64,000 bases of DNA from Alphaproteobacteria bacterium (GTDB taxonomy: Bacteria > Pseudomonadota > Alphaproteobacteria > CACIAM-22H2), in NCBI GenBank assembly GCA_036394195.1, contig DASWFO010000062.1, forward strand, positions 18,514-82,513, written 5' to 3'. The notes beneath the pieces are model-generated. The model was not told where the DNA came from. It ran no database searches and was given only the letters and a program-made list of their open reading frames with translations. A program made the translations under genes and the position numbers. Positions 1 through 42,059 of the stretch are shown in pieces; the stretch's first letter is position 1; the number at the start of each line of letters is the position of its first letter.

Positions 1-64
1 ACACCGTCGCCATCAGGACCAGCAAGACATTGCGGCCCGACCAGCTGATGATCGAAGCGATCAT
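1..64 (-). CDS. cusA: RND heavy-metal efflux pump CusA/CzcA-like; only the first ~21 codons are inside the window
   Basis: The reverse complement of nt 1-64 reads MIASIISWSGRNVLLVLMATV. This matches the CusA N-terminus (MIEWIIRRSVANRFLVLM...). Its ATG overlaps the cusB stop as ATGA. Confidence 0.55.
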   Translation of the reverse strand, partial: MIASIISWSGRNVLLVLMATV

Positions 65-1548
65 GGGCGACCTCCGGCCGCGGGTGCGGCCGTCTCATTG
101 GGGGCCGCGAAGGCATTCAGGGCCGCTCGAAGGTTGCTTTCGGCATCGATCAGGAAGTTCGCGCTGACCACGACCTTCTCGCCCGGCTCGAGGCCTGCCA
201 GCACCGCGTAATAACCGTCGCCGTGCGCGCCGAGCTTCACCTCGCGCGGCTCGAACCGGCCCTCGCCGCGGTCGATCAACACCGTCTGCCTGGTGCCGCT
301 GTTGAGCACCGCCGATTCCGGCACCGCGAGCACCGGACCGGCGCCAACCGCGGCGTCGATCACCACATTGGCATACATGCCGGGCTTCAGCCGCCCGTCG
401 GGGTTCGCGATGACGACCCGCACCTTGCCGGTGCGCGTGTCCTGCATCACGGTCGGGTAGATGAAATCGACCGTCGCCGGAAAGGTCGCGCCGGGATAGG
501 CATTGACCGCGACCTTGGCCACCTGCCCTTCGCCCACGGCACCCAAGTCCTGCTCGAACACCTCGGCCATCAGCCACACGGTCGAGAGGTCGGCGATGCG
601 ATATAGAGGATCGCCCGCGGTGAAGCGCATGCCCTCGACGGCCGTCTTTTCCATCACCACGCCGTCGGCCGGCGAACGCAAGGTCAGCGTGCGCGCGATC
701 ACGTTGTCGCGCTGCAGGCGCCGGACCTGATCGTCCGAAATGTCCCAGTTCCGCAGGCGCTGCAGCGATGCGTCCGCGAGCTGCTTGGCCGACGCGCGGA
801 TGTCCTGGCCGGCGCCGGCCATGTCCTGCAGCGCGCGCCAGGCCAGCGCGTATTCCTGCTGCGCCACCACCAGCTCGGGCGCGTAGATCTCCATCAGCGG
901 CTGGCCGCGGCGCACGGTCTGCCCGGTCGCGTTCACGTGCAGCTTCTCGATCCAGCCGTCGAATTTCGTGTTGACGATGTACAGGCGGCGTTCGTCGGCC
1001 TGCACCGTGCCGACCGCCCGGATGGCACGTGCCAGATCGCGCATTTCGGCCGGCTCGCTGCGCACGCCGAGCGTCTGAACGCGCTCGCGGCTGATCCTGA
1101 CAACCGGTCCGTCATCCCCGGCCTCATCTTCGTAGACCGGGATGTATTCCATCCCCATCGAGTCCTTCTTCGGCACCGGCGAGGTGTCGGGCTGACCCAT
1201 CGGGTTCCGGTAATAGAGGACCCGTCCCTTGCCCGCCTTGATCTCCCTTCCTTGAGATGGTTGCGCCGACGCTTGTGGCGGCGGCGATGCGGGCTCGTCT
1301 TGGTCCTCGTAGACCGGGATGTAGTCCATCCCCATCGAATCCTTCTTCGGCACCGGCGAGTAGTCCGGCTTCCCCATCGGGTCCTTGTAGTAGAGGACAG
1401 TCCGCGGCGTGGCCTGGTTCACGGTCGATGGTGCGGCCATCGACATTGGTGCCTGCCGGCCCACCCAGTAACCGGCGCCCACGCCGACGATCAGCGCAAC
1501 GGCGGAAATGATCGCGACCGCGATCGATCTGACTCCCTGACTTTTCAT
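61..1548 (-). CDS. cusB: RND efflux membrane-fusion (periplasmic adaptor) protein, CusB-like, carrying a tandemly duplicated N-terminal metal-binding motif
   Basis: The 495-aa ORF has an N-terminal TM/signal segment. It contains two copies of VLYY(K/R)(D/N)PMG.PD.SPVPKKDSMGM(D/E)YIPVYED, the CusB N-terminal Met-rich Cu/Ag site. The remainder has HlyD/biotin-lipoyl-like and beta-barrel adaptor signatures, and it sits directly upstream of cusA. Confidence 0.85.
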   Translation of the reverse strand: MKSQGVRSIAVAIISAVALIVGVGAGYWVGRQAPMSMAAPSTVNQATPRTVLYYKDPMGKPDYSPVPKKDSMGMDYIPVYEDQDEPASPPPQASAQPSQGREIKAGKGRVLYYRNPMGQPDTSPVPKKDSMGMEYIPVYEDEAGDDGPVVRISRERVQTLGVRSEPAEMRDLARAIRAVGTVQADERRLYIVNTKFDGWIEKLHVNATGQTVRRGQPLMEIYAPELVVAQQEYALAWRALQDMAGAGQDIRASAKQLADASLQRLRNWDISDDQVRRLQRDNVIARTLTLRSPADGVVMEKTAVEGMRFTAGDPLYRIADLSTVWLMAEVFEQDLGAVGEGQVAKVAVNAYPGATFPATVDFIYPTVMQDTRTGKVRVVIANPDGRLKPGMYANVVIDAAVGAGPVLAVPESAVLNSGTRQTVLIDRGEGRFEPREVKLGAHGDGYYAVLAGLEPGEKVVVSANFLIDAESNLRAALNAFAAPNETAAPAAGGRP

Positions 1549-1653
1549 GTTTGCGAACTCCGAATCTTTGTCATGCGTCCGTTCGATCGCGCGCGATTTC
1601 AGTTGCGGCGCGGGCGGCCGCGCGTTGCGGCCGCCCGCGCCGGAGGCTAGTGG

Positions 1654-2046
1654 TCAGTTTTTCTGAATCGGAACCATCGCAACCGCAGGGCCGGATTCGC
1701 CCGGCACGGCGGCCTCTAGCCGGAGACTCCGGACCGCCTCTCGGGTGACGAGCCGATAGTTGCCCTGGCCGTCAGGAGTGAGCGGTGTCCGGCGCTGGAC
1801 GATGAAGTCGGCCTTGGGATTGGGATGCTCCAGCGTGCGGTAAAAGACCTGCGCGTTGGAGATCGGCTGGCCGGACGGATCGATCAGCCGCACCGTGATG
1901 ACTGAGCTTGCGCCGGTTTTCACGGGCGGCCCGACGATCTCGAACCTGTAGTCCGACGGCGCGGCGCTGGCCGGCCCGACGACTCCACCAATCAAAAGCG
2001 TTGCCAATGCGGTAGCCCTCAGGAGGGCGAAACGAGTGCTGGTCAT
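1654..2046 (-). CDS. Exported ~130-aa protein, FixH/YtkA-like beta-sandwich; paralog of the protein at 4128..4547
   Basis: I placed the start at an internal ATG (MTSTRFALLRATALATLLIGG..), which has a signal peptide. The DYRFE(I/L)(V/A)GPP motif is shared with 4128..4547. It lies inside the cus operon. Confidence 0.55.
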   Translation of the reverse strand: MTSTRFALLRATALATLLIGGVVGPASAAPSDYRFEIVGPPVKTGASSVITVRLIDPSGQPISNAQVFYRTLEHPNPKADFIVQRRTPLTPDGQGNYRLVTREAVRSLRLEAAVPGESGPAVAMVPIQKN

Positions 2047-2273
2047 GTTGTATGTCCTTGCCTTGGGGATCGGCTTTGGCCGCCGCGAGCAAGCGTGCGG
2101 CGTTCCGATCCACAGATGTCTTGGGATCTTCTCGACCGAACCTGATTTTCGGCTGTGCTCGGGCACGGACCTCAAACGAAGCGCGTGGTCACGATGACCA
2201 TTTGCGCCCGCAGGCAGATCGATACCGTCAGCGAGCCGACGGATCAGGAGACGGGCCGCTAAGGCCCGTCGGA

Positions 2274-2621
2274 TCACGCGGCGAGGATAGGAGGCGCCAG
2301 TTCCGGCTTGGGCGTCCGTCCGGCCATGTCGACGCCGACCAATTGGTAGCGCAACGCCGGGGGATCGACTTGCGCCGTCTGGATCGCCGACGGAAGGCCA
2401 AGGAGCTCGATGCAGCCTACGCTGTTCATGCACTGCTCCGACATGGCTTTGCACGGCATCGGCATGCTGGGACTGCCATCGCCCTTGGTTCCCGACGACT
2501 CTGTCGGACAGCCGGCAGAGGCAACACAAGTGCAGCCCAGAAACGAAAAGGAAAAGGCTGGCGTCAATCCGCCGAGGGCGATGCCCATCGCCAGGAGAAA
2601 AGCCAGGAAGCGCTTGTGCAT
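2274..2621 (-). CDS. Small exported Cys/Met-rich protein, a putative periplasmic Cu-binding accessory protein; paralog of 4727..5074
   Basis: It has a signal peptide (MHKRFLAFLLAMGIALGG). The motifs MPMPC, CMNSVGC and LGLPSAIQTA align with IPMPGC, CIVMC and ALPATATPFA in the 4727..5074 protein. It is in the same orientation, lying between the TolC-family gene and the FixH-like gene. Confidence 0.45.
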   Translation of the reverse strand: MHKRFLAFLLAMGIALGGLTPAFSFSFLGCTCVASAGCPTESSGTKGDGSPSMPMPCKAMSEQCMNSVGCIELLGLPSAIQTAQVDPPALRYQLVGVDMAGRTPKPELAPPILAA

Positions 2622-2857
2622 CGGATTGTCCATGACGCTTCTTCGAGTTGGGAGCGGGTGAGGTGACTATCAATCCCGCCCCCTGTTGGACACAGTGTCG
2701 TGAACGGGGCTGTGTCGCGGTGCAATAAATGTATGGTCAGTCCGTTTGAGCGCTTCGTAGGTCGCCCCCGACCAAACGCTCGACATCGCGATCGGGTTTC
2801 CCCCGCTCGAACGTCGCGCGCCGCGGCGTCCCCTGAACTGCATGAATGTCTTGAATG

Positions 2858-4126
2858 TCACAGCCGGTCTCCGATCGTCTTCTCGATGTCGGCCAGCAGC
2901 ATCCGCTCTTCGGCCTGCACTTTCAGCAATTCGAGGCGGACCTCCTGGACGCGGTGGGCCGCTTCCAGCACGGAAGTGAGGTCGCCGCGGCCGAGCTGAT
3001 AGCTGCTCAATGCCGAGCGGTATGCCGCGTCGGTCTGCGGCTGCAGGGTGGTCGTGAGCAGCGCTTCCGTCGTCTTGGCCGCGTCCAAGCCGGCCAGCGC
3101 ATCTTCGAGGTCGCCCTGGAGCTGAAGCAGCGACGCGTCGAGCCGCGAGCGCGCTGCTCCGGCACGTGCCGTGGCCTCACGCGCCTGGGCTTCGCGGAGT
3201 CCCCATTGCAACGGCACCTTGAGGCCGACTCCCGCATAGAGGCGTGGCCCGATATCGGGCAGGCTGCTCTGGCCAAGCGTCACGGTGACGTCGGGATACC
3301 AGCTCTTGTCGACCAGCCGGCGACTGTCTTCCGCCGCCGCGATCTCGGATGTGGCTTCGGCCAGCATCGGATTGTTCCGCCGGGCGCGGTCGACGAGGTT
3401 CGCAATGCGCAGCGCTTCGGCGCCAGGGAGCGGCGGCAACGCAATCGGATCGGTGAGCGGCGAGCCCGGCGCCCTGGCGAGCAACGCGTTGATGCGACCT
3501 TGCGCCGTCCGCTTCTCACGCTCCAGATTCGCGAAGTCGAGGTCGACCCGGCTGCGTTCGACCGCACTGCGGATGGCATCGGCCTGCTGGCCGAGGCCCT
3601 GCCCGTAACGCCGCTGCGCCGTCTCCGCGACGGCATGCAGGAGGGCATGCGTGTCGTGGGTCACCTCGACCGCATGCGTCGCCCGCCAATATTGAGCGAA
3701 CACGGTCTTGACCCGCGCATCGAGCTCCACGGCCGCCGAGAGCTGGCGGCTGCGCGCCCCCAGCGCCTCGGCATTGGCGATGCTGCGCGCGAGGCCGCGC
3801 TTGCCCCAGAGCGGGAACGCCTGCGAGACGGTGGTCAGCGTCTGACGAAACCCCTCGTCCCGCGACAGGTTCAGCATCGGGTCTTCCAGCGCCCCCGCCG
3901 CCGAGGCTTTGGCTGTGGCCGCGTCCGAATCGAGTGCCCGGGCCGCCAGGGTCGGGTTGAGGCGGCGCGCCAAGGCGAGCAGCTCGTCGACCGTCGCGCC
4001 CGGCGGCGGGCCGGCTTCGGCCGCATGCGCCGGCAGGGCGCTCATTGGGGTGGCGGCCAGCGCCGCTGCGATGCCGACGGCGCGGCCGAACCGCAAGGCC
4101 GCCGCGGCAAGCCGATGGGCGCGCAT
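2858..4126 (-). CDS. cusC: TolC-family outer membrane efflux factor (CusC-like)
   Basis: The 422-aa ORF has a signal peptide and the two-fold repeated alpha-helical/beta-barrel OEP pattern typical of the TolC/OprM family. It lies in an operon with cusBA. Confidence 0.8.
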   Translation of the reverse strand: MRAHRLAAAALRFGRAVGIAAALAATPMSALPAHAAEAGPPPGATVDELLALARRLNPTLAARALDSDAATAKASAAGALEDPMLNLSRDEGFRQTLTTVSQAFPLWGKRGLARSIANAEALGARSRQLSAAVELDARVKTVFAQYWRATHAVEVTHDTHALLHAVAETAQRRYGQGLGQQADAIRSAVERSRVDLDFANLEREKRTAQGRINALLARAPGSPLTDPIALPPLPGAEALRIANLVDRARRNNPMLAEATSEIAAAEDSRRLVDKSWYPDVTVTLGQSSLPDIGPRLYAGVGLKVPLQWGLREAQAREATARAGAARSRLDASLLQLQGDLEDALAGLDAAKTTEALLTTTLQPQTDAAYRSALSSYQLGRGDLTSVLEAAHRVQEVRLELLKVQAEERMLLADIEKTIGDRL

Positions 4127-4127
4127 G

Positions 4128-4547
4128 TCACTTCGGGACCGGAACGGTGACGGTGCCGCGCACCGCCTGCGGCTCGCCTTGCACCCGCGCCGACAGGGTC
4201 AGCCCCCAATTGCCCGGCATCGAGGGCTGCGCCTCGAACCGATACACGCCGGGCTCGGTCGCGGGGAGCGCCTTCACGGACCCGCCCATCTCCGCCATGC
4301 CGTCCGGACCCATGTCGAATTTGCTCTGAACGATGACGGCCCCGGGAACGGGCTTGCCGTCCGGAACATGGACTAGGCGGACGTTCACGAGCGTCGCGTG
4401 CGCCAACTTGGCCGGCGGACCGGCGAGCTCGAAGCGGTAGTCCTGCGGGGCGGCCATCGCCGGCACAAAGGGCAGCGCCAGAAGTGCTGCGAGAACGGCG
4501 TAGCGGCACCGAGCGGCCGCGCTCCGGCCGCGAATAACAACGGACAT
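4128..4547 (-). CDS. Exported FixH/YtkA-like protein; second paralog
   Basis: The start is at MSVVIRGRSAAARCRYAVLAALLALPFVPAMAAP, which is a signal peptide. It shares the QDYRFELAGPP motif and overall ~35-40% identity with 1654..2046. Confidence 0.55.
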   Translation of the reverse strand: MSVVIRGRSAAARCRYAVLAALLALPFVPAMAAPQDYRFELAGPPAKLAHATLVNVRLVHVPDGKPVPGAVIVQSKFDMGPDGMAEMGGSVKALPATEPGVYRFEAQPSMPGNWGLTLSARVQGEPQAVRGTVTVPVPK

Positions 4548-4726
4548 GTCTCTTCTCCTGGATCGCGTTGACGGACTCGGAACGGCGCCGTACGAGCGGC
4601 ATCGTCCGAGCAGCCCCGCGGTGGTTCCGGCCATGCCGCTAAAAAGCGGCGCGGCCCGAACTTCGGCGGGCTTTAAGCGGAATTGCTCAGCTCAGCGCCC
4701 TGCCGCACGGCAAGGGGCTGTGCCGG

Positions 4727-5074
4727 TCAAACGCGCGATCGCGGAGGAGAAGGATCGGGAGAAACGGTGACGCCGGCCAGCGCCCGACTGGAGGTCCAGT
4801 AGCCAACATCGGCCCAGACGATCTCGGTGGCAAACGGCGTGGCCGTGGCGGGCAGAGCGCACATGACGATGCAGCTGAGGTCGCCGCTACAACCGGGCAT
4901 CGGTATCGTCTTCGACGATCCGTCAGAATGCCCGGCCATGTCCATGTCCGTGCCCATCATCATGGCGCAGGGCTGCGCCGCCGCAGCCCGCCCGGGGAAC
5001 AACGGCCCCAGCGCCGCCGCTACAAAGGCCAGCAACGTGAGGAGCGCCATGACGCGGGTCCGGAGGGACGCCAT
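4727..5074 (-). CDS. Small exported Met/Cys-rich protein (CAMMMGTDMDMAGH...); second copy of the putative Cu-binding accessory protein
   Basis: An internal ATG at 5074 gives a signal peptide (MASLRTRVMALLTLLAFVAAALG). The Met/Cys clusters are paralogous to 2274..2621. The longer ORF in the track is an unsupported upstream extension. Confidence 0.4.
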   Translation of the reverse strand: MASLRTRVMALLTLLAFVAAALGPLFPGRAAAAQPCAMMMGTDMDMAGHSDGSSKTIPMPGCSGDLSCIVMCALPATATPFATEIVWADVGYWTSSRALAGVTVSPDPSPPRSRV

Positions 5075-5169
5075 GAGCGGGAAGTTAAGCTCCTTCGGGC
5101 GATTTGGGAAGGTCCGGGGTACTCCCGCCCGCTCACGTCCATGTGACCCAGGCCATACCCAACAATGAT

Positions 5170-5640
5170 TCCCGTAACCCACGTCATGTCGCGAACATAC
5201 CCGGGAGCCGGAAAAACAGCCGCGCGGCTCGTCTCTGGTATCCGTCATGCCGGACTTGATCCGGCATCCATCGCGACGCTGCACATGCGCTGCGCCGCCG
5301 CGAAACGTCGGCGGGCGCGCAGAAGACTTGGGGACCCCGCATCTCGGCGTCGGGCAAAAGCCCGAGCGCCTGGTGCGGGGTGACGAGTGGGGTAGTGGCA
5401 GCGGTCGAGAGAACGTCACTCTGACCCTGATTTAACCACGTCATGTCGCGAACATGCCCGGGAGCGGGAAAAACAGCCGCGTGGCTCGTCTCTTATCCGT
5501 CATGCCGGACTTGATCCGGCATCCATCGCGACGCTGCACCATGGACCCCGCATCAAGTGCGGGGTGACGAGTGGGATAGCGGCAGCGGTCGAGAGAACAT
5601 GACTCTGACCCCGATTTAACCCGATTTAACGGGCATGACG
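5170..5640 (+). repeat. Two tandem copies of a ~200-270 bp REP/MITE-like element (family A)
   Basis: Both copies share a core of ccgtcatgccggacttgatccggcatccatcgcgacgctgca ... ggggtgacgagtgggRtagYggcagcggtcgagagaac. The first copy carries an ~85-bp internal hairpin insertion. A third copy is at 8975..9230. Confidence 0.8.
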
Positions 5641-5686
5641 ATATAGAGAGCGGTTCGACCTAATCGGAATCCGCTAAGACGCGTGG

Positions 5687-6238
5687 CTATTGATGGCGGT
5701 GATCGTGGCCGCCCGCCGAGGCACCATCGGCATACCCGCGCAGCGCGTCGTAGCGGGCGATCTGGTCGGCGGTCAGCACGTCGCGCGTTTCCAGATGCGC
5801 GGCGAGGTGGACGGCGCGCAGCCGGCCCTGGATCTCGGCGATCGCGGCGGTCGCGGCCGCGAGCCGATCGCGCGTGATCCGGCCGGTGGCGAAGTCCTGG
5901 TCGAGCGCTTGCTCCCGCTCCACAAGCTCGGCGCCGAGCGGCTTCGCGGCAGCGCTCATGCGCGCGAAGCTGGCCTGGATCGCGCCGAGCTGGTCTGCCG
6001 TGAGCGCGAGGTGGTCGCGGAGCTCCAGCGCGTGTGCCGGGCCGGGGTAGTGGTTGAGCTCGCCCGCCCGCGCCATGCCGAGGCCGCGCCCGGCCAGGAG
6101 ATCGGCAACCTCGTCGTCGGACAGCGTCTTGATGGCGCGGTCCTGCTGGCCGGCATACGGCGACGCGGCATCGGCCGGGCGTGACAGCTGACCGGCCAAC
6201 AGGACGGCCAGTGCGAGAAAGACCACCCGAAGAGTCAT
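5687..6238 (-). CDS. Periplasmic LTXXQ-motif protein (Spy/CpxP/ZraP family) with a His-rich C-terminus
   Basis: It has a signal peptide (MTLRVVFLALAVLLAGQLSRPADA) and two LTADQ motifs. The C-terminal tail is GGHDHRHQ. A strong SD (AAGGAGG) lies 7 nt upstream of ATG 6238, and the copA stop overlaps that RBS region. Confidence 0.7.
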   Translation of the reverse strand: MTLRVVFLALAVLLAGQLSRPADAASPYAGQQDRAIKTLSDDEVADLLAGRGLGMARAGELNHYPGPAHALELRDHLALTADQLGAIQASFARMSAAAKPLGAELVEREQALDQDFATGRITRDRLAAATAAIAEIQGRLRAVHLAAHLETRDVLTADQIARYDALRGYADGASAGGHDHRHQ

Positions 6239-6249
6239 CGATTCCTCCT

Positions 6250-8607
6250 TCACAGCGAAACCCGGCGGAGCCGGAGCGCGTTGGTGATGACGCTGACCGA
6301 GCTCAGCGACATCGCCGCGGCGGCGAAGACCGGGCTCAGCAGCAGGCCGAAGACCGGATACAGCACGCCGGCCGCGATCGGCACGCCGGCGGCATTGTAG
6401 ACGAAGGCGAAGAACAGGTTCTGCCGGATGTTGCGCATGGTCGCCGCCGAGAGCCGGCGCGCCCGGACGATGCCGGTGAGGTCGCCCTTGACCAGCGTGA
6501 CGCCGGCGCTCTCGATGGCGACGTCGGTGCCCGTCCCCATGGCGATGCCGACATCGGCGGCCGCCAGCGCCGGCGCGTCGTTCACGCCGTCGCCGGCCAT
6601 GGCCACCACCCGGCCCTGCTCGCGCAGCCTGAGCACGACTTTGGCCTTGTCCTCGGGCAGGACGTCCGCGGCGACGTCGTCGAGGCCGAGCTTGCGGGCC
6701 ACGGCCTCCGCCGTGGTTCGGTTGTCGCCGGTGAGCATGACGATCCGCACCCCCTCGGCCTTCAGCGCCCGCACCGCCTCCGGTGACGTCGCCTTGATCG
6801 GATCGGCGATGGCGATGACGCCTGCCGCCTCGCCCCCCACGGCCATGAAGATGACCGTAGCGCCGTCGCGGCGCAGCTCGTCCGCGCGCGCCTCGAGGCC
6901 GCGTGCATCCAGCCTAAGCTCCGCGAAGAGCTTCAGATTGCCGAGCGCCACACGCTGTCCGTCGACGGTTCCGACGACGCCCTTGCCGGTCGGCGAGTCG
7001 AAATCCCGCGTCTCGGCCAGAGCCAGGCCGCGCTCGCGCGCCGCGGCGACGACGGCGGCGGCGAGCGGATGCTCGCTGCCGCGCTCGAGGCTGGCGGCCA
7101 GACGCAGCAGCTCCCGCTCGTCGAAGCGTCCGGCGGGCACCACGGCGACGACCCTGGGCTTGCCCTCGGTCAAGGTCCCGGTCTTGTCGACCACCAGCGT
7201 GTCGACGCTCTCGAAGCGCTCCAGCGCCTGCGCGTTCTTGATCAGCACGCCGGCCGCCGCACCCCGACCCATCCCGACCATGATCGACATCGGCGTGGCG
7301 AGGCCAAGCGCACACGGACAGGCGATGATCAGCACCGCGACCGCCGCGACCAGCCCATACCCATACGCCGGCGGCGGGCCCCAGATCGCCCAGCCGACGA
7401 AGGCGAGGACGGCGATCGCGATCACCGCCGGCACGAAATACGCCGCCACCTTGTCCGCCAGGCGCTGGATGGGTGCCCGGCTGCGCTGCGCTTCGGCGAC
7501 CAGGCGGACGATCCGCGCCAGCATGGTGTCCGTGCCGACTTTCTCGGCGCGCATCACGAAACTGCCGGTCTGATTCAGCGTCCCGCCAATGACCTTCGCA
7601 CCCGGCTCCTTCATCACCGGCATCGATTCGCCGGTGACCATCGACTCATCGACGGCGCTGCGGCCCTCGATCACCTGGCCGTCGACCGGCACTTTCTCGC
7701 CGGGACGAACGCGCAGCCGATCGCCGACCCCGACCGCGTCGAGAGAAATCTCCTCGTCCTGTCCGGCGCCCGTCACCCGGCGCGCGATCTTCGGCGCCAG
7801 ATCGAGCAGCGCCCGGATGGCACCGCCGGTGGCTTCGCGGGCGCGCAGCTCCAGAACCTGCCCGACCAGGACAAGCACGGTGATCACCGACGCCGCCTCG
7901 AAATACACCGGCGTCTCGCCGTGTGGCCCGCGGAAGGCCGGCGGGAACAAATCGGGGGCCAGCGTCGCCACGACGCTGTAGAGCCAGGCGACGCCCGTTC
8001 CCATCGCGATCAGGGTGAACATGTTGAGGTTGCGCGACACCAGGGACGCCCAGCCGCGGACGAAAAATGGCCAGCCCGCCCACAGCACGACCGGCGTTGC
8101 GAGCACCAGCTGCAGCCAGTCGGACAGCGCCGGCGCGATCAGACGGTGGAGATCGAACAGGTGGCCGCCCATCTCGAGCCCCACCACCGGCACGCTCAGC
8201 CCGAGGCCGACCCAGAGCCGGCGCCGCATGTCGACGAGTTCGGGATTGGGCCCGGTCTCGGCGGTCACGTCGGCGGGCTCCAGCGCCATGCCGCAGATCG
8301 GACATGAGCCGGGACCGACCTGACGTATCTCGGGGTGCATCGGACAGGTGTAAATCGTGCCCGCTGGTGCCGCGGGAGCGACGGGTGCGGGGCTGACGTA
8401 ACGCTGCGGATAGGCTTCGAACTTCTCGCGGCAGCGCGGGTTACAGAAGAAATAGGTGACACCGCCATGCGAGGCCTTGTGCTTGGCGGTGGCGGGATTC
8501 ACGGTCATCCCGCAGACCGGATCCTTCGCCAAGGCCGGCGCCGGTTCATGCGCGTGATGGGCGCCATGGCCGCAATTGTGATCGTGACTGTGAAGGTGGT
8601 CCGACAT
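6250..8607 (-). CDS. copA: Copper-translocating P1B-type ATPase
   Basis: The conserved DKTGT, CPC (TM6), TGDN and GDGVNDAP motifs are present. The N-terminus is His-rich, followed by a YHS/TRASH-like CGMTV...C..C domain and a YTCPMHPEI...CPICGM domain. I placed the start at the internal ATG ([10 protein letters not shown]); the upstream extension overlaps csoR on the opposite strand. Confidence 0.9.
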
Positions 8608-8628
8608 GGAACAGCGCCCTTGAACTGG

Positions 8629-8645
8629 ATACCCCCTAGGGGTAT
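8629..8645. promoter_or_regulatory. Candidate CsoR operator: near-perfect GC-rich palindrome ATACCCCCTAGGGGTAT between the divergent copA and csoR starts
   Basis: The 17-bp inverted repeat is centred on CTAG. It lies 21 nt upstream of the copA ATG and 10 nt upstream of the csoR ATG. It resembles known CsoR operators (TACCC-N-GGGTA type). Confidence 0.5.
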
Positions 8646-8655
8646 ATTTAGACCC

Positions 8656-8925
8656 ATGCGAAGCGAAGTCAAGGATGCCTGTGTATCGCGCCTGCGCCGC
8701 ATCGAGGGGCAGGTGCGCGGTCTCGTCCGCATGGTCGAGGACGACCGCTACTGCATCGACGTCATCACCCAGGTCCAGGCCGTGCGCGCGGCTCTGAAGC
8801 GGGTCGAGGAAGAGGTGCTGAAGGACCACGTCGCGCATTGTGTCGAACACGCCATCCAGAGCGGCGACGCCAAGGAGCAGCGGAAGAAGGTGGCCGAGCT
8901 CATGGACGTGCTCGGCAAGGTCTGA
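8656..8925 (+). CDS. csoR: CsoR/RcnR-family copper-sensing transcriptional repressor
   Basis: The 89-aa ORF contains [25 protein letters not shown]...H..C, i.e. the Cys-His-Cys Cu(I) ligands and the W-X-Y-Z fingerprint. Confidence 0.85.
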
Positions 8926-8974
8926 GAGCGGTTCCCCGGACTCGTTCACCACGGAGACACGGAGATCACGGAGA

Positions 8975-9230
8975 AAGAGAAGAGAGCCGCGCGGCTCGTC
9001 TCTTATCCGTCATGCCGGACTCGATCCGGCATCCCCAAATCTTCTACGCGCCCGCCGGCGCCCAATCTCCTGCAGGAGGCGAAGCCCCCTGCGACCCCGG
9101 GCGGCGGCGCAGCGCAAGGCGACGCTGCACCATGGACCCCGCATCTCGGCGTCGGGCAAAGCCCGAGCGCCTGGTGCGGGGTGACGAGTAGGATAGTGGC
9201 AGCGGTCGCGAGAAAGTGATGCCCCGATTT
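8975..9230 (+). repeat. Third copy of REP/MITE-like family A, same orientation as the copies at 5170..5640
   Basis: It shares gctcgtctcttatccgtcatgccggacYYgatccggcatcc and ...cgcatctcggcgtcgggcaaagcccgagcgcctggtgcggggtgacgagtaggatagtggcagcggtcg with the 5170..5640 copies. Confidence 0.8.
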
Positions 9231-9361
9231 TGACGCATTACTGCGGCGCAGCAGCGCCGTGATTTGCGACAAATGCCTAATGTTTCCGCGCGCCGCGCGC
9301 GGATGTAACGTAGCGCTCAGGTCGAGTCGTTGAAGACGACCGCAACATCGGAGCGAACATC

Positions 9362-9733
9362 ATGGCTCTCGCGCCGCTCGAAGTGCTCATTTACGCGCTG
9401 GTGATCACCGGCCAGCCGGTGCCGGCGGAGTGCAATCTCCGTCCCGACAAGACCGTCGCCTGCAGCAACGGCGTCACCGCAGCCGCGACCGGCACCGGTG
9501 TCGGCATGGTCCTGAACGGCACGGTCAGCATTCAGCCGGCGCGCGACGGCAGCCTCTTGTTCAGCAACGGCATCACCGCCTCGCGCGGCTCCGCCGGGTG
9601 GATCCGGTTCTCCACCGGCATCGCGGCGCGCCGCGACACCTCCGGCTATCGCAACAGCTTTCTGGTCGCTCCCGATCTCGTCTGCACCGAGGAGAGCGAG
9701 ACCAAGGCCAGCTGCAAGAAGCGGCCGGAGTAG
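9362..9733 (+). CDS. Hypothetical protein (123 aa) with an N-terminal hydrophobic segment and 4 Cys
   Basis: Amino-acid composition is non-biased (unlike the shadow ORFs). There is no recognisable family. REP elements flank it on both sides. Confidence 0.35.
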   Translation: MALAPLEVLIYALVITGQPVPAECNLRPDKTVACSNGVTAAATGTGVGMVLNGTVSIQPARDGSLLFSNGITASRGSAGWIRFSTGIAARRDTSGYRNSFLVAPDLVCTEESETKASCKKRPE

Positions 9734-9899
9734 CGCGGTTTAAGCGACTTCGATCGCCTTGGGTAGCCCCTCTCCGTGCGAAGCGGGGAGAGGGAAGGGC
9801 CCGCGCAACTTGCGCTGCGTTCGCGGCCTTCAAGGCCGCGGCCGGGCGCGAATAAAGACTTGGGCGGGAGGGTGAGGTGTATTGCCGCCTGCCCGATGT

Positions 9900-9960
9900 C
9901 GGACCCACCTCACCCGCTCGCTGCGCTCGCACCCTCTCCCCCCTAAAGGGCGGAGAGGTC
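9900..9960. repeat. REP family C (cccacctcacccgctc ... gctcgcaccctctcccccctaaagggcggagagg)
   Basis: The identical 34-mer gctcgcaccctctcccccctaaagggcggagagg recurs at ~14722..14755. It recurs inverted at ~15225..15250. A related copy is at 9765..9800. Confidence 0.75.
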
Positions 9961-9991
9961 ATGAGGCAATCGCGGCCGGCTCTTACCTCGT

Positions 9992-10754
9992 CTATCGCGC
10001 GGCGGCCTTGTGGGTCAGGTTGTCGCGGAGAAATTTCGCCACCGCGTCGCGCGCCGCGGATTCGCCGTAGGTGTTATGTCCCTTGCCGCGCAACGCGACG
10101 TTCTGGAACCCGTTACGGGATTCGAACTTGTCGCCGCAGGTTCCCTTGATACGCGGCAGCCAGCGCATGAGCGAGTGCTCGTCATCCCACAGGATCGACA
10201 ATACCGGGATCCCGGCCGGCAAGGAAATGTCCGGCACGCGCTGGCACGTCCAGCTGGAGATGATGGCGCCCCGAATCCCGCCGATCCGGCTCTCGCCCAC
10301 CGCATCGGCGCCCTCGCTGAAGCCCATGACGAAGACGTTGGCCGGGTCCGCCCACGGGCTGGCCTTGATCTGCGCCAGCGCGTAGGCGAGCTCCTCGAGG
10401 CGCATCGGCATGACGGCCGGATTGCGCGCCGGCCAGCAGCTGGGCTCCTTGTTGGCCCGCGCGAAGCGGTCGGGTGCGACGACGATGAAGCCCTGGCTGG
10501 CGACATAGCGCGCCCACGGAATGTCGTTCTCCTGATTCATGCCGCCGCAGCCGTGCATGTAGAGCACCACCGGCCGTCGGCGGTCCGGCGGGAGCTTGTC
10601 GACGCCCATCGAATTCGGATCACCGGGAAGGAAGGCCATGGCCCCCGTCCAGCTCCGCGCCACATCGCTGTCGTCGGCCCGCGGGCGCGCCGACAGCATG
10701 AGCAGCGCCAGCAACGTCGCCGCCAACAGCACCAACTTCAGACTCGATCGAACC
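9992..10754 (-). CDS. Exported alpha/beta-hydrolase (dienelactone-hydrolase-like)
   Basis: The likely TTG start gives the signal peptide (M)SVRSSLKLVLLAATLLALLMLSARPRA. HGCGG and GFSEGA nucleophile-elbow-like motifs are present. The start is uncertain by a few codons. Confidence 0.65.
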
Positions 10755-10936
10755 GACAAGACTCGCCTCCGTAGACTGAAAGCGTGATGCGCTGAAGATG
10801 GCGCGAGGCGAAGCGGCGGCTCAAGTGGCCAAGCGCATGGCCACAGGAAAGTCACGGCGGCCGCCGTCATCAAATCGCCGTAATCGGCGTGCGAGCCGGC
10901 CGCTCCGTCGTCAGCGCCGACATCAGGGCAGCTCAA

Positions 10937-11357
10937 TCAGCCGGCGACGTCGATAACTGCAAACCCTTCCTTCCGCGCCGCCGCCCCCAGGCGATCATCG
11001 AGGGTGATCATTTCCAACGATGTGGGCCGCCGCTCGGCGGCAACGAATGCTGCTGATGCGAGTTGCAACGCATCAGCGGCGCGCAGCGAATGCACGCGAA
11101 GAAATCGGGTGGCCGTTTCCCGGAGAGTATCGCTCGGATCGATCTCGTGCCAACCAGCCGCAAGTTGCTCAAGCCGCCTAAACGCGAGCGTGACCGCCTG
11201 GGAGCCCAATCCACCGTCACGCTCGAGGCGGGCAAGCGCTGAGACGCACTCGACTTCGGATCCCCACCAGACGAGCATGGCGGGATCGTTCGTCGCGAGG
11301 GCCTGGCATCTCCAGCGATCAGAACGGCACGATCGCGGAGGCGTCCCAGAACCTCAC
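10937..11357 (-). pseudogene. vapC: PIN-domain VapC toxin, apparently frameshifted near the N-terminus
   Basis: The main frame (ATG 11278..10937) encodes the PIN C-terminal two-thirds (..LRAADALQLA..TLDDRLGAAARKEGF..). The expected N-terminus VRFWDASAIVPF, including the first catalytic Asp, sits in another frame. That frame starts at a GTG overlapping the antitoxin stop (GTGA) and hits a stop after 12 codons. Confidence 0.45.
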
Positions 11358-11653
11358 CGACCCTCGCGCCGCTCTTCGATGAGGGCCTTCATGGCAGACG
11401 CGTTGCCCTTCGGGCGTGGAGGCTGGTCGGCGAAAAGGGACCGCGGCACAGTGGTGCGGCTTGGCCGTACCACGCCCTCCCGGATGAGCCGCGCCAGTCG
11501 ACCATCATCTCCCGCCCTCAGCCCAGTGGTCACGGGCTCAAGGCGTGCCACCGGGCGTCCGCGATCGACGATCAGCACCGGCGAGCCCCCCTTGAGACCA
11601 TCGATCAAGGCGCGAAGATTATTCTTGGCTTCGGTTATGCTGGCCTTCTTCAT
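11354..11653 (-). CDS. Phd/YefM-family type II antitoxin
   Basis: The N-terminus MKKASITEAKNNLRALIDGLKGGSPVLIVDRGRPVARLEP is typical of Phd/YefM. It is immediately upstream of the PIN toxin. Confidence 0.8.
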   Translation of the reverse strand: MKKASITEAKNNLRALIDGLKGGSPVLIVDRGRPVARLEPVTTGLRAGDDGRLARLIREGVVRPSRTTVPRSLFADQPPRPKGNASAMKALIEERREGR

Positions 11654-14639: not shown

Positions 14640-14812
14640 TCGACGCGGCTTTGTTCCGAAGAGCCCACCTCACCCGCTCCCGGGGTGCAGGGGGCTTCGC
14701 TCCCTGAAAAAGATAAGGGGGCTCGCACCCTCTCCCCCCTAAAGGGCGGAGAGGGTTAGAGGGGTCCCCCCCCTCAAGGGGGGAGGGGCGATTTGAGTGG
14801 ATCGCCTCCACG
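14640..14812. repeat. Composite REP element (family C plus a palindrome)
   Basis: It contains cccacctcacccgctc, gctcgcaccctctcccccctaaagggcggagagg and the palindrome cccccctcaaggggggagggg. Confidence 0.7.
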
Positions 14813-15221: not shown

Positions 15222-15378
15222 TGACCCTCTCCGCCCTTTAGGGGGAGCGGCAAGTACGCTCCGTTTCTTCCTTCGTCATTCCCGCGAAAGCGGAAATCCA
15301 TGGTTCAGCGGCACGATGGATGCCCGCCTTCGCGGGCATGACGGAAAAGAAAACGTTCGTCGCAACCATCACGAGATA
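15222..15378. repeat. REP elements: an inverted family C copy plus family D (catgcccgccttcgcgggcatgac hairpin)
   Basis: ccctctccgccctttagggggag is the reverse complement of the family C core. The perfect hairpin gtcattcccgcgaaagcggaaat / gcccgccttcgcgggc is present. Confidence 0.65.
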
Positions 15379-18657: not shown

Positions 18658-18779
18658 CGCGCTGACTCCCACCCCCCACCCTACCCTCCCCCGCAAGGGG
18701 GAGGGATTTCGATCATGCTTGCTGCCCTGGATCCCCGCCTTCGCGGGGATGACACGAGCATGCGAGGCGCATGCTCGTG
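18658..18779. repeat. REP family D copy (atccccgccttcgcggggatgac) plus the palindrome ccctcccccgcaagggggaggg
   Basis: Inverted repeats are seen directly in the birA-nuoN spacer. Confidence 0.65.
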
Positions 18780-20282
18780 TCAATTCTGAAACAGGGCGGC
18801 GGCGGCGACGGTGGCGGCGCCGATCAGCGGCGCCGGGTAGACGAAGAACAGCAGGGTGAACAGGGTGCCGATCGCCAGCACCGTGCCGAGCTTGCCGCCG
18901 ATCGGCCGATCGAACGTGGTCGCCGGGTCGTCGAAATACATCAGCTTGACGATGCGCAGGTAATAAAAGGCGCTCACCACGCTGGTCAGCACGCCGATCA
19001 CGGCCAGGATGTAGAGCCCGGCGGCGATGGCGGCCAGGAACACGTAGAGCTTGCCGAAGAACCCGGCGAGCGGCGGAACGGCGGCCATCGAGAACATGGC
19101 GACCGCGAGCGCCGCCGCCACCACCGGCTGCGTCTTCGCAAGCCCGGCGAGATCGCCGATCTCCTCGATCATCTGGCCGTTGCGGCGCATGCACAGGATC
19201 ACCGCGAACGTGGCGAGGTTCATGAACAGATAGATCGCCATGTAGATGAGCACGCCGCGCACGCCGTTCTCGTCGCCGGCGGCGAGACCGACCAGGGCGT
19301 AGCCGATATGCCCGATCGAGCTGTAGGCCATCAGCCGCTTGATGTTGGTCTGGTTGATCGCGGCAAAGGCGCCGAGCAGCATCGACAGGACCGAGGTCAC
19401 GATCACGATCTGCTGCCACTCGCCGACAATGGTGCCGAAGGGCTGGATCAGCACCCGCACCAGGAGCGCCACGGCGGCGATCTTGGGCGCGATCGAGAAG
19501 AACGCGGTCACCGGCGTCGGCGCCCCCTGGTACACGTCCGGCGCCCACATATGGAAGGGCGCCGCCGAGATCTTGAACGCCAGGGCCGCGGCAACGAACA
19601 CCAGGCCGAAGATCAAGCCCAGCGGCGGATCGGCCGCCTGGTCGGCAACGATGGCCGCCAACGGCTGGAACGACGTGGTCCCGGCGAAGCCGTAGACCAG
19701 CGAGGCGCCGTAGAGCAGCATGCCCGATGCGAGCGCGCCGAGGACGAAATACTTGAGGCCGGCCTCGGTGGAGAGCGCGTGATCGCGCCGGAACGACGCG
19801 ACGACGTAGAGCGCCAGGCTCTGCAGCTCGAGGCCCAGGTACAGCGCGATCAAGTCGTTCGCCGAGACCATCAGCATCATGCCGAGGGTCGCGAACAGGA
19901 TCAGCACCGCGTACTCGAAGCGGCCCATGTCCTCGCGCTCGTTGTAGTCGATGGAGATGATCAGGGTCAGCGCCGAGCCGATCAGGATCAGGATCTTCGA
20001 AAACCCGGAAAAGGCGTCGCTGACGAACATGTCCGAGAACGTGTAGATGCGCTCGACCGAGCCGCCCGCCACCAGGACGCCGGCGATCGCCAGGATCGCA
20101 ATCGCGATCCAGGACACCAACCGGGCGTTGGCCGCCGCGGCGACGCCGCGGCCGGTGCCCGCCGCCTGGTGCGGCCGCTCGCCCCGGAACACGCCGAACA
20201 GGAGCAGCAGCATCGCCGCCACGGCGACGAACAGCTCGGGCAGAGCCGGGCCGAGGAGAATGACGTTGCCGTTGTCGTTCAT
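18780..20282 (-). CDS. nuoN: NADH-quinone oxidoreductase subunit N
   Basis: It starts at [18 protein letters not shown] (ATGA overlap with the nuoM stop). It is a 14-TM antiporter-like subunit. Confidence 0.9.
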
Positions 20283-21820
20283 GGAGTCGTCTCCGCCAGC
20301 CGGGGCCGCGCGTCCGGCTTCGCCGGCGGCACGATGGTCTGCGCCGCCTGGTAGCGGCCGACCAGCGCCTCGACCGACGGCGAGAACACATCGAGGAAGG
20401 ACTTGGGATAGATGCCCATCCACAGCACGACCAAGATCATCGGCGCGAAGATCGCCTTTTCGCGCAAGTTCAGGTCGAGGATGTTCTTGAGATCGTCGCG
20501 GACGAGCGGGCCGAAAATCACGCGCCGGTACAGATAGAGCATATAGGCGACACCGAGGATGGTGCCGATGGCGGCGAGGAAGGCGACCCAGGTGTTCACC
20601 TGGAACGCGCCGGTCAGCGCCAGGAACTCGCCGACGAAGCCGCTGGTTCCGGGCAGGCCGACCGCGGCAAGCGTGAACACCATGAAGACGAAGGCGTAGA
20701 CCGGCATGCGGTGGACAAGGCCGCCGTAACGGGCGATCTCGCGGGTGTGCATGCGGTCGTAGATGACGCCGACGATGAGGAATAGGGCGCCGGACACCAC
20801 GCCGTGGCTGAGCATGTTGAACAAAGCACCCTGCAGGCCCTGCACGGTGCCGGTGAACGTGCCCATCGTGACGAAGCCCATATGCGCCACCGACGAGTAG
20901 GCGATGAGCTTCTTCATGTCCTCCTGCACCAGCGCCACCAGCGAGGTATAGACGATGGCGATGACGCTGAGCGCATAGACCAGCGGCGCGAAATAGGCCG
21001 AGGCCTCCGGCAGCATCGGCAGCGAAAAGCGCAGGAACCCGTAGGCGCCCATCTTCAGCAGCACGCCGGCGAGGATGACCGAGCCGGCAGTGGGCGCCTC
21101 GACATGCGCGTCCGGCAGCCAGGTATGGACCGGCCACATCGGCACCTTGATCGCGAACGAGGCGAAGAACGCCAGCCACAGCCAATACTGCATCGCGGCT
21201 GGGATCTGGGTGTTCAGCAAGGTCGGGATGTCGGTGGTCTCGGTGACGTAGTAGATGGCGAGAATCGCCAGCAGCATCAGCACCGAGCCGGCAAACGTGT
21301 AGAGGAAGAACTTGAACGCCGAATAGACCCGGCGCGGCCCGCCCCAGATGCCGATGATCAGGAACATCGGGATCAGCACGCCCTCGAAGAACAAGTAGAA
21401 GAGAATGAGGTCGAGCGCGCAGAACATCCCGACCATCAGGGTCTCGAGGATCAGGAAGGTGATCATGTATTCGCGCACCCGCACCTGGATCGCCTCCCAG
21501 CTGGCGAGGATGCAGAGCGGCGTCAGGAAGGTCGACAGAAGGACGAACCACAGGGAGATCCCGTCGACCCCCATCTGATAGGTGATGCCGAAGGCCGGGA
21601 TCCAGTCATGGATCTCGACGAACTGGAAGTCGGCGGTCGTGGTGTCGAACTCGAGCCACAGCAGGATCGACAGCGCGAAGACGATCAGCGAGGTCCACAG
21701 CGCCGTCATGCGCGCGTTGCGTGCCACCACCTCGGGCGTCCCGCGCACGAAGGCGATGAACACGGCCCCGGCGACGGGCAGGAACGTGACGAGGGACAGG
21801 ATCGGCCAGTTCGCGGTCAT
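20279..21820 (-). CDS. nuoM: NADH-quinone oxidoreductase subunit M
   Basis: 513 aa, [15 protein letters not shown]... Confidence 0.9.
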
Positions 21821-21824
21821 GGCG

Positions 21825-23765: not shown

Positions 23766-23774
23766 AAGCGAGCC

Positions 23775-24083
23775 TCAGCCCTTCATCAGGTTGATGTCTT
23801 CGACCGCGATCGTGCCGCGGTTGCGGAAATAGACGACGAGGATGGCGAGGCCGATCGCCGCCTCGGCCGCGGCGACGGTGAGGACGATCATCGCGAACAC
23901 CTGACCGACGAGGTCGCCGAGATGGGTCGAGAACGCGACCAGGTTGATGTTGACGGCGAGCAGGATCAGCTCGATCGACATCAGGATGATGATCACGTTC
24001 TTGCGGTTGAGGAAGATGCCGAAGATGCCGAGCGTGAACACGATCGCCGCGACGGTCAGGTAATGGCCGAGGCCGATGGTCAT
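23775..24083 (-). CDS. nuoK: NADH-quinone oxidoreductase subunit K
   Basis: 102 aa, 3 TM. Confidence 0.9.
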
Positions 24084-24697
24084 GACACGCCCTCGCGCGA
24101 CGGCACCTTGACCACGGCGATGCTGTCCTCACGCGTCCGGCCGACCTGGCGGCTGATCACCTGGCGGCGCACGCCGGCGCGCTGGCGGAGCGTCAGCACG
24201 ATGGCGCCGATCATGGCGACGAGCAGCACCAGCCCCGCGACCTGGAAGAGATAGACGTAGTCGGTGTAGAGCACGAGCCCCAGCGCGTGGGTGTTGGTGA
24301 TCTGGCGCGGATCGGGGATCGGCACCTGGGTCGCCGACGCCGCTTCGGGGGCGAAGGTCCAGGCGCCGGCGACCAGCGCCAGCTCGGCGAACAGGATCAG
24401 CCCGACCAGGCCGCCGATCGGCAGATAGCGCATGAAGCCGCTGCGCAGCTCCGCGAAATCGACGTCGAGCATCATGACGACGAACAGGAACAGCACCGCG
24501 ACCGCGCCGACATAGACGATGATGAGGACCATCGCCAGGAACTCGGCCCCCATGAGCACGAACAGCCCCGCGGCGTTGAAGAACGCGAGGATGAGGAACA
24601 GCACCGAGTGCACCGGATTGCGCGCGGCGATCACCAGTGCCGCCGAGGCGACCAGGATGGCCGAGAACAGATAGAAACAGATGGTGGCGATCAGCAC
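24080..24697 (-). CDS. nuoJ: NADH-quinone oxidoreductase subunit J
   Basis: 205 aa. Confidence 0.9.
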
Positions 24698-24805
24698 GGG
24701 AGACCCTCACCCTCCCACGGCTCACGCCGTGGGCTCCTCCCTCTCCCGCCGGGCGGGAGAGGGGCTTTTAGATCCGGTTGCGTTGCACTCATTCCCCCGC
24801 CCCGC
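24698..24805. repeat. Intergenic hairpin/REP inside the nuo operon (ctcctccctctcccgccgggcgggagaggggc palindrome)
   Basis: It is a 13-bp perfect inverted repeat between nuoJ and nuoI. A possible attenuator or processing site. Confidence 0.5.
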
Positions 24806-25297: not shown

Positions 25298-25329
25298 CCA
25301 TCCCCGGCGGCACAGCCGCCGCACATCCT

Positions 25330-36997: not shown

Positions 36998-37033
36998 CAA
37001 ACAAAAACGCCTCCGGTCCAAAGACCGGAGGCG
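36998..37033 (-). terminator. Intrinsic terminator of lon
   Basis: On the minus strand, cgcctccggtc-ttt-gaccggaggcg is followed by TTTTTGTTTG, 23 nt after the lon stop. Confidence 0.7.
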
Positions 37034-37055
37034 TTGATTGCTGCGACCGATCGCG

Positions 37056-39473
<2,418 letters not shown>

Positions 39474-42015: not shown

Positions 42016-42059
42016 GTCCTCGCTGGTTCGTCGCCCTATGTCTCTACTTTACCCTGCGG

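Follow-up and report, generated by a model that had tools for sequence, protein, structure and literature searches.

In the closest described relative of the locus studied here, that of Bradyrhizobium liaoningense CCNWSX0360, the repressor gene csoR and the copper pump gene cueA form a divergon. According to the passages of that study on which we draw, csoR is leaderless, as determined by RACE (rapid amplification of cDNA ends), and the CsoR box lies on overlapping -10 elements (Liang et al. 2016, PMC5057107). The same passages give Cys33, His58, and Cys62 as the CsoR ligands, describe the N-terminus of CueA as His rich, and report the divergon to be conserved across Bradyrhizobium (PMC5057107). 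In Streptomyces lividans, the operators of copZA1 and copZA2 bind CsoR (Tan et al. 2014, PMC3902906). Here we analyzed a 64,000-nucleotide stretch of contig DASWFO010000062.1 (assembly GCA_036394195.1), called the window below, in which csoR, copA, and a gene for a protein with two LTXXQ motifs (the LTXXQ protein) lie between copies of an intergenic repeat, next to a cus-like resistance-nodulation-division (RND) copper-efflux operon. The region belongs to a chromosomal locus for copper efflux in an uncultured alphaproteobacterium from soil, and the locus is a variant of the known CsoR-controlled copper-efflux divergon. Its one unusual feature is the fusion of copA and the LTXXQ gene into one operon. 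The proposal that the repeats mark the borders of a mobile cassette was not supported.

The csoR-copA divergon and its operator

Gene order was read from the open reading frame (ORF) listing together with Pfam and NCBIfam scans. The csoR gene (8656-8925, plus strand) encodes an 89-aa protein that matches PF02583 (Trns_repr_metal) with 104.1 bits against a cutoff of 22.8 (E 5e-30); among the NCBIfam models, it matches that of the copper-sensing repressor RicR best. The x-C-H-C fingerprint consists of a Cys and, 25 residues on, His-x3-Cys, where RcnR instead has H-C-H-H. The window protein carries this fingerprint, with Ser at residue 3 and the Cu(I)-ligand set Cys33/His58/Cys62. On the other strand, copA (6250-8607, minus strand) encodes a P1B-1 Cu(I)/Ag(I)-exporting ATPase of 785 aa with the Pfam domains E1-E2_ATPase, Hydrolase, YHS, and HMBD and a TIGR01511 score of 606 bits (cutoff, 397). 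All P1B-1 signatures are present (TGES325, CPC430, DKTGT474, GDGVND672, YNAAGVP737, and MSLSS766). The N-terminus is His rich and is followed by YHS and HMBD, the GXXCXXC HMA domain being replaced.

The two genes are separated by 48 bp (8608-8655), and within this interval lies a 17-bp CsoR box, ATACCCCCTAGGGGTAT (8629-8645), that follows the TAC-N9-GTA rule. The box is a 7-3-7 inverted repeat (ATACCCC/GGGGTAT), includes the perfect 10-mer CCCCTAGGGG, and is found once in the window, with about 2e-4 exact matches expected from base composition. The S. lividans copZA1/copZA2 operators have exactly the same 15-bp core, TACCCCCTAGGGGTA. The initial annotation had named this palindrome as the CsoR operator, and the TAC-N9-GTA rule, the core shared with CsoR-bound sites, and the position on a sigma-70-like promoter all point to the same predicted role. 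The palindrome had also been placed exactly between the divergent start codons; it does lie within the intergenic region, but it is off center, with 21 bp to the copA ATG and 10 bp to the csoR ATG. In the related locus L095 (CopA about 80% and CsoR 64% identical), csoR is also divergent from copA, and the region between them (8271-8325) has two TAC-N9-GTA boxes, ATACCCTGCAGGGGTAT and TATACCCCCACTGGGTAT, versus the single one in the window. A second CsoR-family gene beside a major facilitator superfamily (MFS) gene, and an IS110 transposase gene, are found nearby in L095.

A sigma-70 scan placed a csoR promoter-like site, TTGAAC-17-TATATT, at 8620-8648 on the plus strand, the single sigma-70-like match in 4900-9500, where 0.3 would be expected. 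Its -10 element ends 7 nt ahead of the csoR ATG, which suggests that the csoR mRNA may be leaderless, and the CsoR box occupies the spacer and part of this -10 element. On the minus strand, a putative copA promoter (8645-8672) was picked out by eye, with TTGACT at 8672-8667, a 16-nt spacer, and TAAATA at 8650-8645. We propose it by analogy with the overlapping -10 elements described in the B. liaoningense passages; its -10 element would overlap that of csoR and extend onto the first base of the box. When copper is low, apo-CsoR would occupy the box and block both back-to-back promoters. Binding of Cu(I) at Cys33/His58/Cys62 would release CsoR, and both csoR, as a leaderless mRNA, and the operon led by copA would be switched on. 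When we searched for a second CsoR box ahead of the cus-like operon and elsewhere in the window, allowing up to three mismatches, none was found, and there is no sigma-70-like promoter for the cus-like operon in 5075-5690. The cus-like operon may therefore be transcribed by read-through from the copA operon.

The copA-LTXXQ junction and the LTXXQ protein family

The LTXXQ gene (5687-6238, minus strand, 183 aa) directly follows copA. The junction (6238-6252, minus strand), read directly from the DNA, is TGA-AGGAGG-AATCG-ATG (in context, ...GCTG TGA AGGAGG AATCG ATG ACT...), with the copA stop codon at 6252-6250, the LTXXQ start codon at 6238, and a gap of 11 nt. Such a gap leaves no space for a terminator or a promoter, and together with the shared strand and a strong Shine-Dalgarno sequence it indicates that the LTXXQ gene is co-transcribed with copA. 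The LTXXQ gene is probably also translationally coupled to copA. Coupling had been claimed before with the stop codon placed inside the Shine-Dalgarno sequence; the strand, the gap, and the strength of the site agree with the claim, but the AGGAGG begins at or directly after the TGA rather than around it, followed by 5 nt to the ATG.

The junction is not shared by the relatives that we could compare. A P-type ATPase gene directly upstream of the LTXXQ homologue was found in 0 of the 80 best genome loci, and the metagenome contexts that could be read had none either. L091, which encodes the closest homologue with DNA available (72% identical), and L095 both lack the junction. For three of the closest homologues, whose upstream genes are truncated, a search with the C-terminal 220 aa of CopA gave no match that agreed with these genes in length and contig size among its 120 best results. 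In L091 the upstream gene is unrelated, and about 390 bp downstream there is a homologue of a small Cys/His protein, which corresponds to the first gene of the cus-like operon of the window. In the two Tardiphaga loci L029 and L047, the LTXXQ gene belongs to a copper island, where it lies immediately upstream of DUF411, YtkA, OEP, CusB, and CusA genes, with csoR 7.7 kb off. In L095, copA is followed by genes for a small Cys/His protein and a DUF305 protein, and the locus has no LTXXQ gene and no repeats. Judged from these gene orders, the fusion of copA and the LTXXQ gene into one operon is specific to this lineage, and the older linkage is that of the LTXXQ gene with the cus-like operon. Small proteins similar to the Cys/Met/His-rich one encoded at 4730-5074 of the window are encoded after copA in L095 and after the LTXXQ gene in L091.

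The LTXXQ protein starts with a hydrophobic, signal-peptide-like leader (MTLRVVFLALAVLLAGQLSRPADA|AS, ending ADA|AS) and is predicted to be secreted by the Sec route into the periplasm. LTADQ occurs in it at residue 79 and again at residue 155, and its last residues are GGHDHRHQ, in agreement with the His-rich tail noted in the initial annotation. The protein scores 24.0 bits against PF07813, where the cutoff is 24.3, and matches PF13801 weakly, and many relatives with 60 to 80% identity carry precomputed matches to PF07813 and/or PF13801. An alignment-based AlphaFold model (predicted local distance difference test score, 82.6) has three long helices and is predicted to adopt the long bent alpha-helical hairpin fold of the Spy/CpxP/ZraP family. 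In an alignment with the Salmonella STV protein 5ihf, both LTADQ motifs fall on LTxxQ motifs of that protein, but the E value is 0.62. Membership in the Spy/CpxP/ZraP/CnrX fold group is therefore supported at the level of the fold, with modest scores.

The family to which this protein belongs is large: 1,959 proteins fall within E <= 1e-5, and genomes of many phyla gave at least 567 matches. A His-rich tail was present in all 22 of the 22 aligned members, and H69, M94, H144, H148, and E150 are invariant across the alignment. As the tail is a family-wide trait, it is not a copper-specific adaptation. The neighbors of the LTXXQ genes are diverse. Copper-efflux markers lie within 8 kb in 8 of the 80 family loci, and one member is found in a copper island on a Microvirga plasmid. 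In L002 (8853-10543), L003 (8850-10546), and L004 (985-2681), homologues with 60 to 68% identity overlap the stop codon of an MFS_MOT1 gene by 4 bp. In L006 (4912-7567), a 69% identical homologue follows an ars-type operon that encodes an HTH_20 ArsR, a glyoxalase, an LMWPc arsenate reductase, and an MIP aquaglyceroporin. Another member lies near molybdenum genes, that of Roseomonas adjoins a Crp regulator and a sulfate/molybdate transporter, and others adjoin RND pumps, peptidases, and unrelated genes. The overlap with MFS_MOT1, which is of the molybdate-transporter type, is a second recurrent tight coupling of this family, in this case to a transporter of a different element. The LTXXQ family is thus a large, unstudied family of secreted, His-tailed proteins that has been wired repeatedly into metal and metalloid transport operons, and it is a candidate for a general periplasmic metal-stress chaperone.

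We consider it most likely that the LTXXQ protein acts in the periplasm as a general holdase or buffer against metal(loid) stress, which is here expressed with copA. Where copper is released by CopA and the adjacent cus-like RND system, it would guard envelope proteins or retain metal. The initial annotation had described the protein as a periplasmic copper sink made in step with the pump. Co-expression with copA stands, whereas copper specificity is weakened by the family-wide occurrence of the His tail and of the conserved His, Glu, and Met residues, by the mixed neighbors, and by the lack of an ATPase gene upstream in all 80 loci. A dedicated copper partner of CopA, that is, a periplasmic Cu(I) acceptor or sink kept in a fixed ratio with the pump and possibly passing copper to the cus-like system, would fit the tight junction, the location of the gene between copA and the cus-like operon, the tail and the invariant residues, the eight loci with copper-efflux genes within 8 kb, and the copper islands of Tardiphaga and the Microvirga plasmid. 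However, the same residues and tails are found in members coupled to MFS_MOT1, to ars operons, or to unrelated genes, which argues against copper specificity, and the copA junction was seen in this lineage only, so that we regard such a partnership as doubtful. It is unlikely that the protein is a dedicated periplasmic copper acceptor or holdase which translational coupling makes stoichiometric with CopA and which forms a bridge to the cus-like RND pump; such a protein would be an analogue of CusF or CueP built on a chaperone fold. On this unlikely reading, the widespread family as a whole would serve as a modular buffer against metal(loid) stress in the periplasm, joined to exporters and importers of different elements (Cu, Mo, and As). 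The plasmid homologues carry the name "periplasmic heavy metal sensor," given by the Prokaryotic Genome Annotation Pipeline, and this name suggests a CnrX-like periplasmic metal sensor that serves a signaling pathway. Among the annotated neighbors of the window gene, however, we identified no CnrY/CnrH-type anti-sigma or extracytoplasmic function (ECF) sigma genes and no two-component genes, the signal peptide looks cleavable and not like a membrane anchor, and the operon is already under the cytoplasmic sensor CsoR. A role as a sensor is therefore highly improbable.

The flanking repeats and their genomic setting

The repeats, delineated by repeat search, pattern searches, and MAFFT alignment, are present in three copies, all in plus orientation. 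Copies A and B lie in tandem on the left side of the three genes (5180-5641). Copy A (5180-5436) consists of a head, core 1, an interior of about 60 nt, core 2 with a nested loop hairpin, and a tail; copy B (5437-~5641) has the head, both cores, and the tail without an interior. On the right side, copy C (~8980-9238) has core 1, an interior of about 95 nt, core 2, and the tail, and it lacks the 5' head, CACGTCATGTCGCGAACATRCCCGGGAGC, which is found only in A and B. Core 1 (...AGCCGCGYGGCTCGTCTCTTATCCGTCATGCCGGACTYGATCCGGCATCC), with the hairpin ATGCCGGA-CTYGA-TCCGGCAT, is common to the three copies and is 96% identical over 50 nt between B and C. Core 2 (GGACCCCGCAT...GTGCGGGGTGACGAGTRGGRTAGYGGCAGCGGTCG), in which CCCCGCA...TGCGGGG is followed by TGACGAGTRGGRTAGYGGCAGCGGTCG, is also common to all and is 85% identical over 61 nt between B and C. 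Each core pattern was observed 3 times, with 0.00 to 0.16 expected in shuffles. The loop of core 2 holds a nested hairpin in A and C, and 49 nt of the interior of C (9058-9106, matching 47859-47907 at 88% and also 59009-59055) belong to another repeat family. Copy B ends in a 10-bp tandem duplication (2.1 units of CCCGATTTAA). The initial annotation had seen a ~200-bp element present as a tandem pair and a single copy; the number and the common orientation stand, but the copies are mosaics and not three copies of one 200-bp unit.

All copies are strictly located between ORFs, and their RNA folds far better than shuffled sequences (-108.7 kcal/mol with a z score of -3.4 for copy B, and -153.8 kcal/mol with a z score of -3.9 for copy C). 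The repeats are REP/RIME-like (repetitive extragenic palindromic and Rhizobium-specific intergenic mosaic element) mosaics of nested GC-rich stem-loops. Terminator-like signals are weak: only copy C has a 5-bp stem with a T-rich tail, and A and B have a 4-bp stem with T5 on the minus strand. Such repeats possibly come to lie in the intergenic DNA where transcription units end, and they may there affect termination or the 3' stability of the mRNA. The Rfam scan of 4500-10000 gave only chance-level matches (P13 small RNA at E 0.29 and Guanidine-III at E 0.44), and a known RNA family was rejected as an identity for the repeats, as no Rfam family matches.

Relatives of the repeats are dispersed over the window. 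A diverged copy at 15255-15369 (nhmmer E 2e-25) retains the linkers CATCCATCG..GCTG.ACCATGGA and TGACGA, with both hairpins changed in a compensatory manner, and weaker relatives were found by nhmmer profile and self-BLAST at 60046-60144 and about 18725-18750. Other mosaic families occupy 14670-14800, 47835-47990, and 58950-59070. In total there are about eight repeat-bearing intergenic sites in the 64 kb, beside housekeeping genes; the genes bordered by dispersed sites include those of a glyoxalase-family protein, RNase J, malonyl-CoA decarboxylase, and an aldo-keto reductase. Taking about 1 kb per gene, we estimate 55 to 60 intergenic gaps in the window, of which about eight bear repeats, and one operon pair flanked on both sides is then roughly what chance would give. 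Outside the window, matches are few. The exact 28-mer of core 2 had 0 matches in 185,579 species-representative genomes, and 1.1 Mb of loci, taken from more than 80 other genomes, did not contain the family. When metagenome contigs were scanned with a 23-mer, a single contig was returned, WNFI01342501.1, with two sites (L010 1-370 and L009 2528-2730) that lie 4.4 kb apart and flank genes for an SAM (S-adenosylmethionine) methyltransferase and a 699-aa cupin protein; their modules are 97% identical to copy B, with 36 nt inserted into the loop of core 1. The few matches suggest that the family is lineage restricted, and it seems to be confined to a narrow uncultured lineage. A REP/RIME-like repeat family of limited distribution is thereby documented. 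Another intergenic family includes a perfect 34-nt repeat (9925-9958 and 14721-14754) with a hairpin module of the CCCTCTCCCC...GGAGAGGG type, to which sequences at 18662-18705 and at L010 164-209 are related.

As a whole, we find it likely that the locus combines a csoR-copA divergon, a copA-LTXXQ operon, and REP/RIME-like repeats, without a cassette. Several points weigh against this explanation. The putative copA promoter matches 8 of 12 positions and falls under the scan threshold, and any metal-binding or chaperone role of the LTXXQ protein is a prediction from its sequence. The repeat census covers 64 kb of the genome, and within these 64 kb the high-identity subfamily (85 to 100% in the cores) is found only at the two flanks of the three genes, in one orientation, so that a recent local duplication, or recombination of one site with the other, is possible. 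The modules on WNFI01342501.1 again bracket a gene group of about 4.4 kb in one orientation, which makes two such cases. The initial annotation had read the arrangement as a signature of recombinational insertion or exchange, and it was right that only the LTXXQ gene, copA, and csoR lie between the repeat sites, as the ORF listing agrees. That these genes are a cassette inserted, exchanged, or excised by homologous recombination between the direct repeats would fit the restricted subfamily, its uniform orientation, the stretches of 27 to 50 nt that are 96 to 100% identical between the sides, the absence of the copA-LTXXQ junction from relatives, and the similar bracket on the metagenome contig. 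However, the left repeats lie inside the conserved string of LTXXQ gene, small Cys/His protein gene, and cus-like operon, so that what the repeats enclose is no evolutionary unit. The copper genes extend beyond the bracket into the cus-like operon, and the G+C content of 5 to 9 kb (0.66 to 0.71) is within the range of the window. There is no integrase, transposase, or tRNA gene at the borders; no recombinase was present among the annotated flanking ORFs, and no tRNA gene within 24 kb. Neither an empty site nor an allele with alternative cargo was found among the very few relatives. One flanked operon pair is, moreover, expected by chance, and repeats of these kinds also flank unrelated core genes (the relatives at 15.3, 18.7, and 60.1 kb, the families at 14.7, 47.9, and 59.0 kb, and the sites on WNFI01342501.1), which is in large part what the initial annotation had named as refuting its reading. 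A cassette is on this evidence quite unlikely. A composite transposon, an integron, and a genomic island were likewise rejected as origins, as neither a recombinase or tRNA gene nor an unusual base composition points to one. A pair of similar intergenic repeats on the two sides of a resistance operon is no evidence of mobility.

The repeats had also been called MITE-like, that is, similar to miniature inverted-repeat transposable elements. If they were true MITEs, mobilized in trans by the transposase of an insertion sequence, they would have landed by chance on both sides of the genes. Their size of 200 to 260 bp and intergenic location would agree with this, and so would the GATTTAAC-like sequence at the A and B junctions, the 10-bp tandem duplication at the end of B, and the inverted motifs of the CGTCATG...CATGACG type near the ends of B. 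Around C there is no equivalent of the GATTTAAC-like sequence or of the duplication, and target duplications that agree among the copies were not found. However, the repeat search of the window gave no terminal inverted repeats common to the copies, only the short CGTCATG/CATGACG motifs recurring, and copy C has no head module. The nested insertions in hairpin loops and the compensatory hairpin changes of the 15.3-kb copy are typical of REP/RIME-like mosaics, including BIMEs (bacterial interspersed mosaic elements), and not of cut-and-paste elements. No transposase gene was noticed among the annotated ORFs of the window, in which no systematic transposase screen was made. We therefore regard true MITEs as very unlikely and retain the description of the repeats as REP/RIME-like mosaics.

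The window DNA is GC rich (about 66%), and several of its parts recur in other records. The segment 8315-10860 is 100% identical to a 2.5-kb Joint Genome Institute (JGI) soil metagenome contig, which was the only match in an exact-protein lookup of the csoR product. The corresponding lookups for CopA and the LTXXQ protein gave no record; the LTXXQ protein is 100% identical to hypothetical protein VGB82_05320 of an "Alphaproteobacteria bacterium" metagenome-assembled genome (NCBI Third Party Annotation). The cus-like operon (61-5074, minus strand; Pfam YtkA, OEP, and HlyD_D23) lies outside the repeats and directly adjoins the LTXXQ-copA-csoR module, and its genes are on the same strand as the LTXXQ gene and copA. 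It encodes a small Cys/Met/His-rich protein without a Pfam family (4730-5074), a YtkA-like protein (4131-4634), an outer membrane factor (2861-4126, OEP), a second YtkA-like protein (1657-2673), and a CusB-type adaptor (64-1548, HlyD_D23), all on the minus strand, and the RND pump gene is presumably located beyond the edge of the window. The adaptor gene contains a 95-nt direct repeat (1127-1221 and 1304-1398, 87% identical), which suggests an internally duplicated N-terminal segment. To the right of copy C there are genes for a 123-aa unknown protein (9362-9733, plus strand) and a dienelactone-hydrolase-like protein (9995-10936, minus strand), followed by a probable type II toxin-antitoxin pair (10940-11278 and 11357-11653, both on the minus strand), in which the Phd/YefM antitoxin scores 30.9 bits, above the cutoff, and the PIN-domain protein gives a weak, partial match of 19.2 bits, below it. 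The AT skew is positive (0.22 to 0.29) over 19000-26000 and about -0.2 over 37000-43000, well outside the values of the rest of the window.

Comparison with described systems

The repeats resemble the REP and BIME elements of enterobacteria and the RIMEs and Sm-repeats of rhizobia (Osteras et al. 1995, cited in PMC2573895), as far as these are described in the citing paper. They share the intergenic location, the size of 100 to 250 bp, the mosaic structure of imperfect palindromes in nested or tandem arrangement, and the conservation of both sequence and secondary structure. Rhizobial genomes carry dozens of elements of the REP, BIME, or RIME kind (PMC2573895). The window repeats differ in that they match no Rfam family.

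The LTXXQ protein resembles the Spy/CpxP/ZraP/CnrX group (PF07813 and PF13801) in its signal peptide and in the two LTXXQ motifs borne on long helices, and, as for ZraP and CnrX, its conserved His, Glu, and Met residues point to a metal site. It differs in its larger size (183 aa), its conserved N-terminal PYAGQQ...ELNHYPGP, its His tail, and its threshold-level similarity. No Cpx, Bae, or Zra two-component genes and no CnrYH partners lie nearby, and the protein is encoded within the copA operon. As in the case of CusF, CueP, and CopK, it is a small periplasmic protein encoded beside copper exporters and plausibly co-induced with them. Whereas CusF and CueP are of the beta-barrel type, the LTXXQ protein is all helical and Spy-like, without an evident Met/Trp Cu(I) site, and the context of its family is not copper specific.

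The regulatory core, comprising the CsoR box, the divergon, and a presumably leaderless csoR, is of an already known type. The operator shares its core and the TAC-N9-GTA rule with S. lividans copZA1/copZA2 (PMC3902906), but that species is an actinobacterium, CsoR acts there on a copZA operon and not on a divergon, and the flanking bases are different. With the csoR-cueA divergon of B. liaoningense, as described in the passages cited above, the locus shares the divergent csoR and P1B-1 ATPase genes, the ligand positions, a single box with 7-bp arms on overlapping -10 elements (that of copA being putative here), a His-rich pump N-terminus in place of GXXCXXC, and a csoR start placed for a leaderless mRNA, which in the window is read from the sequence. 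The box of B. liaoningense has a 5-bp spacer (TATACCC-CTACC-GGGTATA) and that of the window one of 3 bp (ATACCCC-CTA-GGGGTAT). Downstream of copA, the window has the co-transcribed LTXXQ gene and then the cus-like operon; the passages on B. liaoningense do not describe the region downstream of cueA. The regulatory core of the window thus extends the Bradyrhizobium system, as characterized in those passages, to an uncultured soil lineage.

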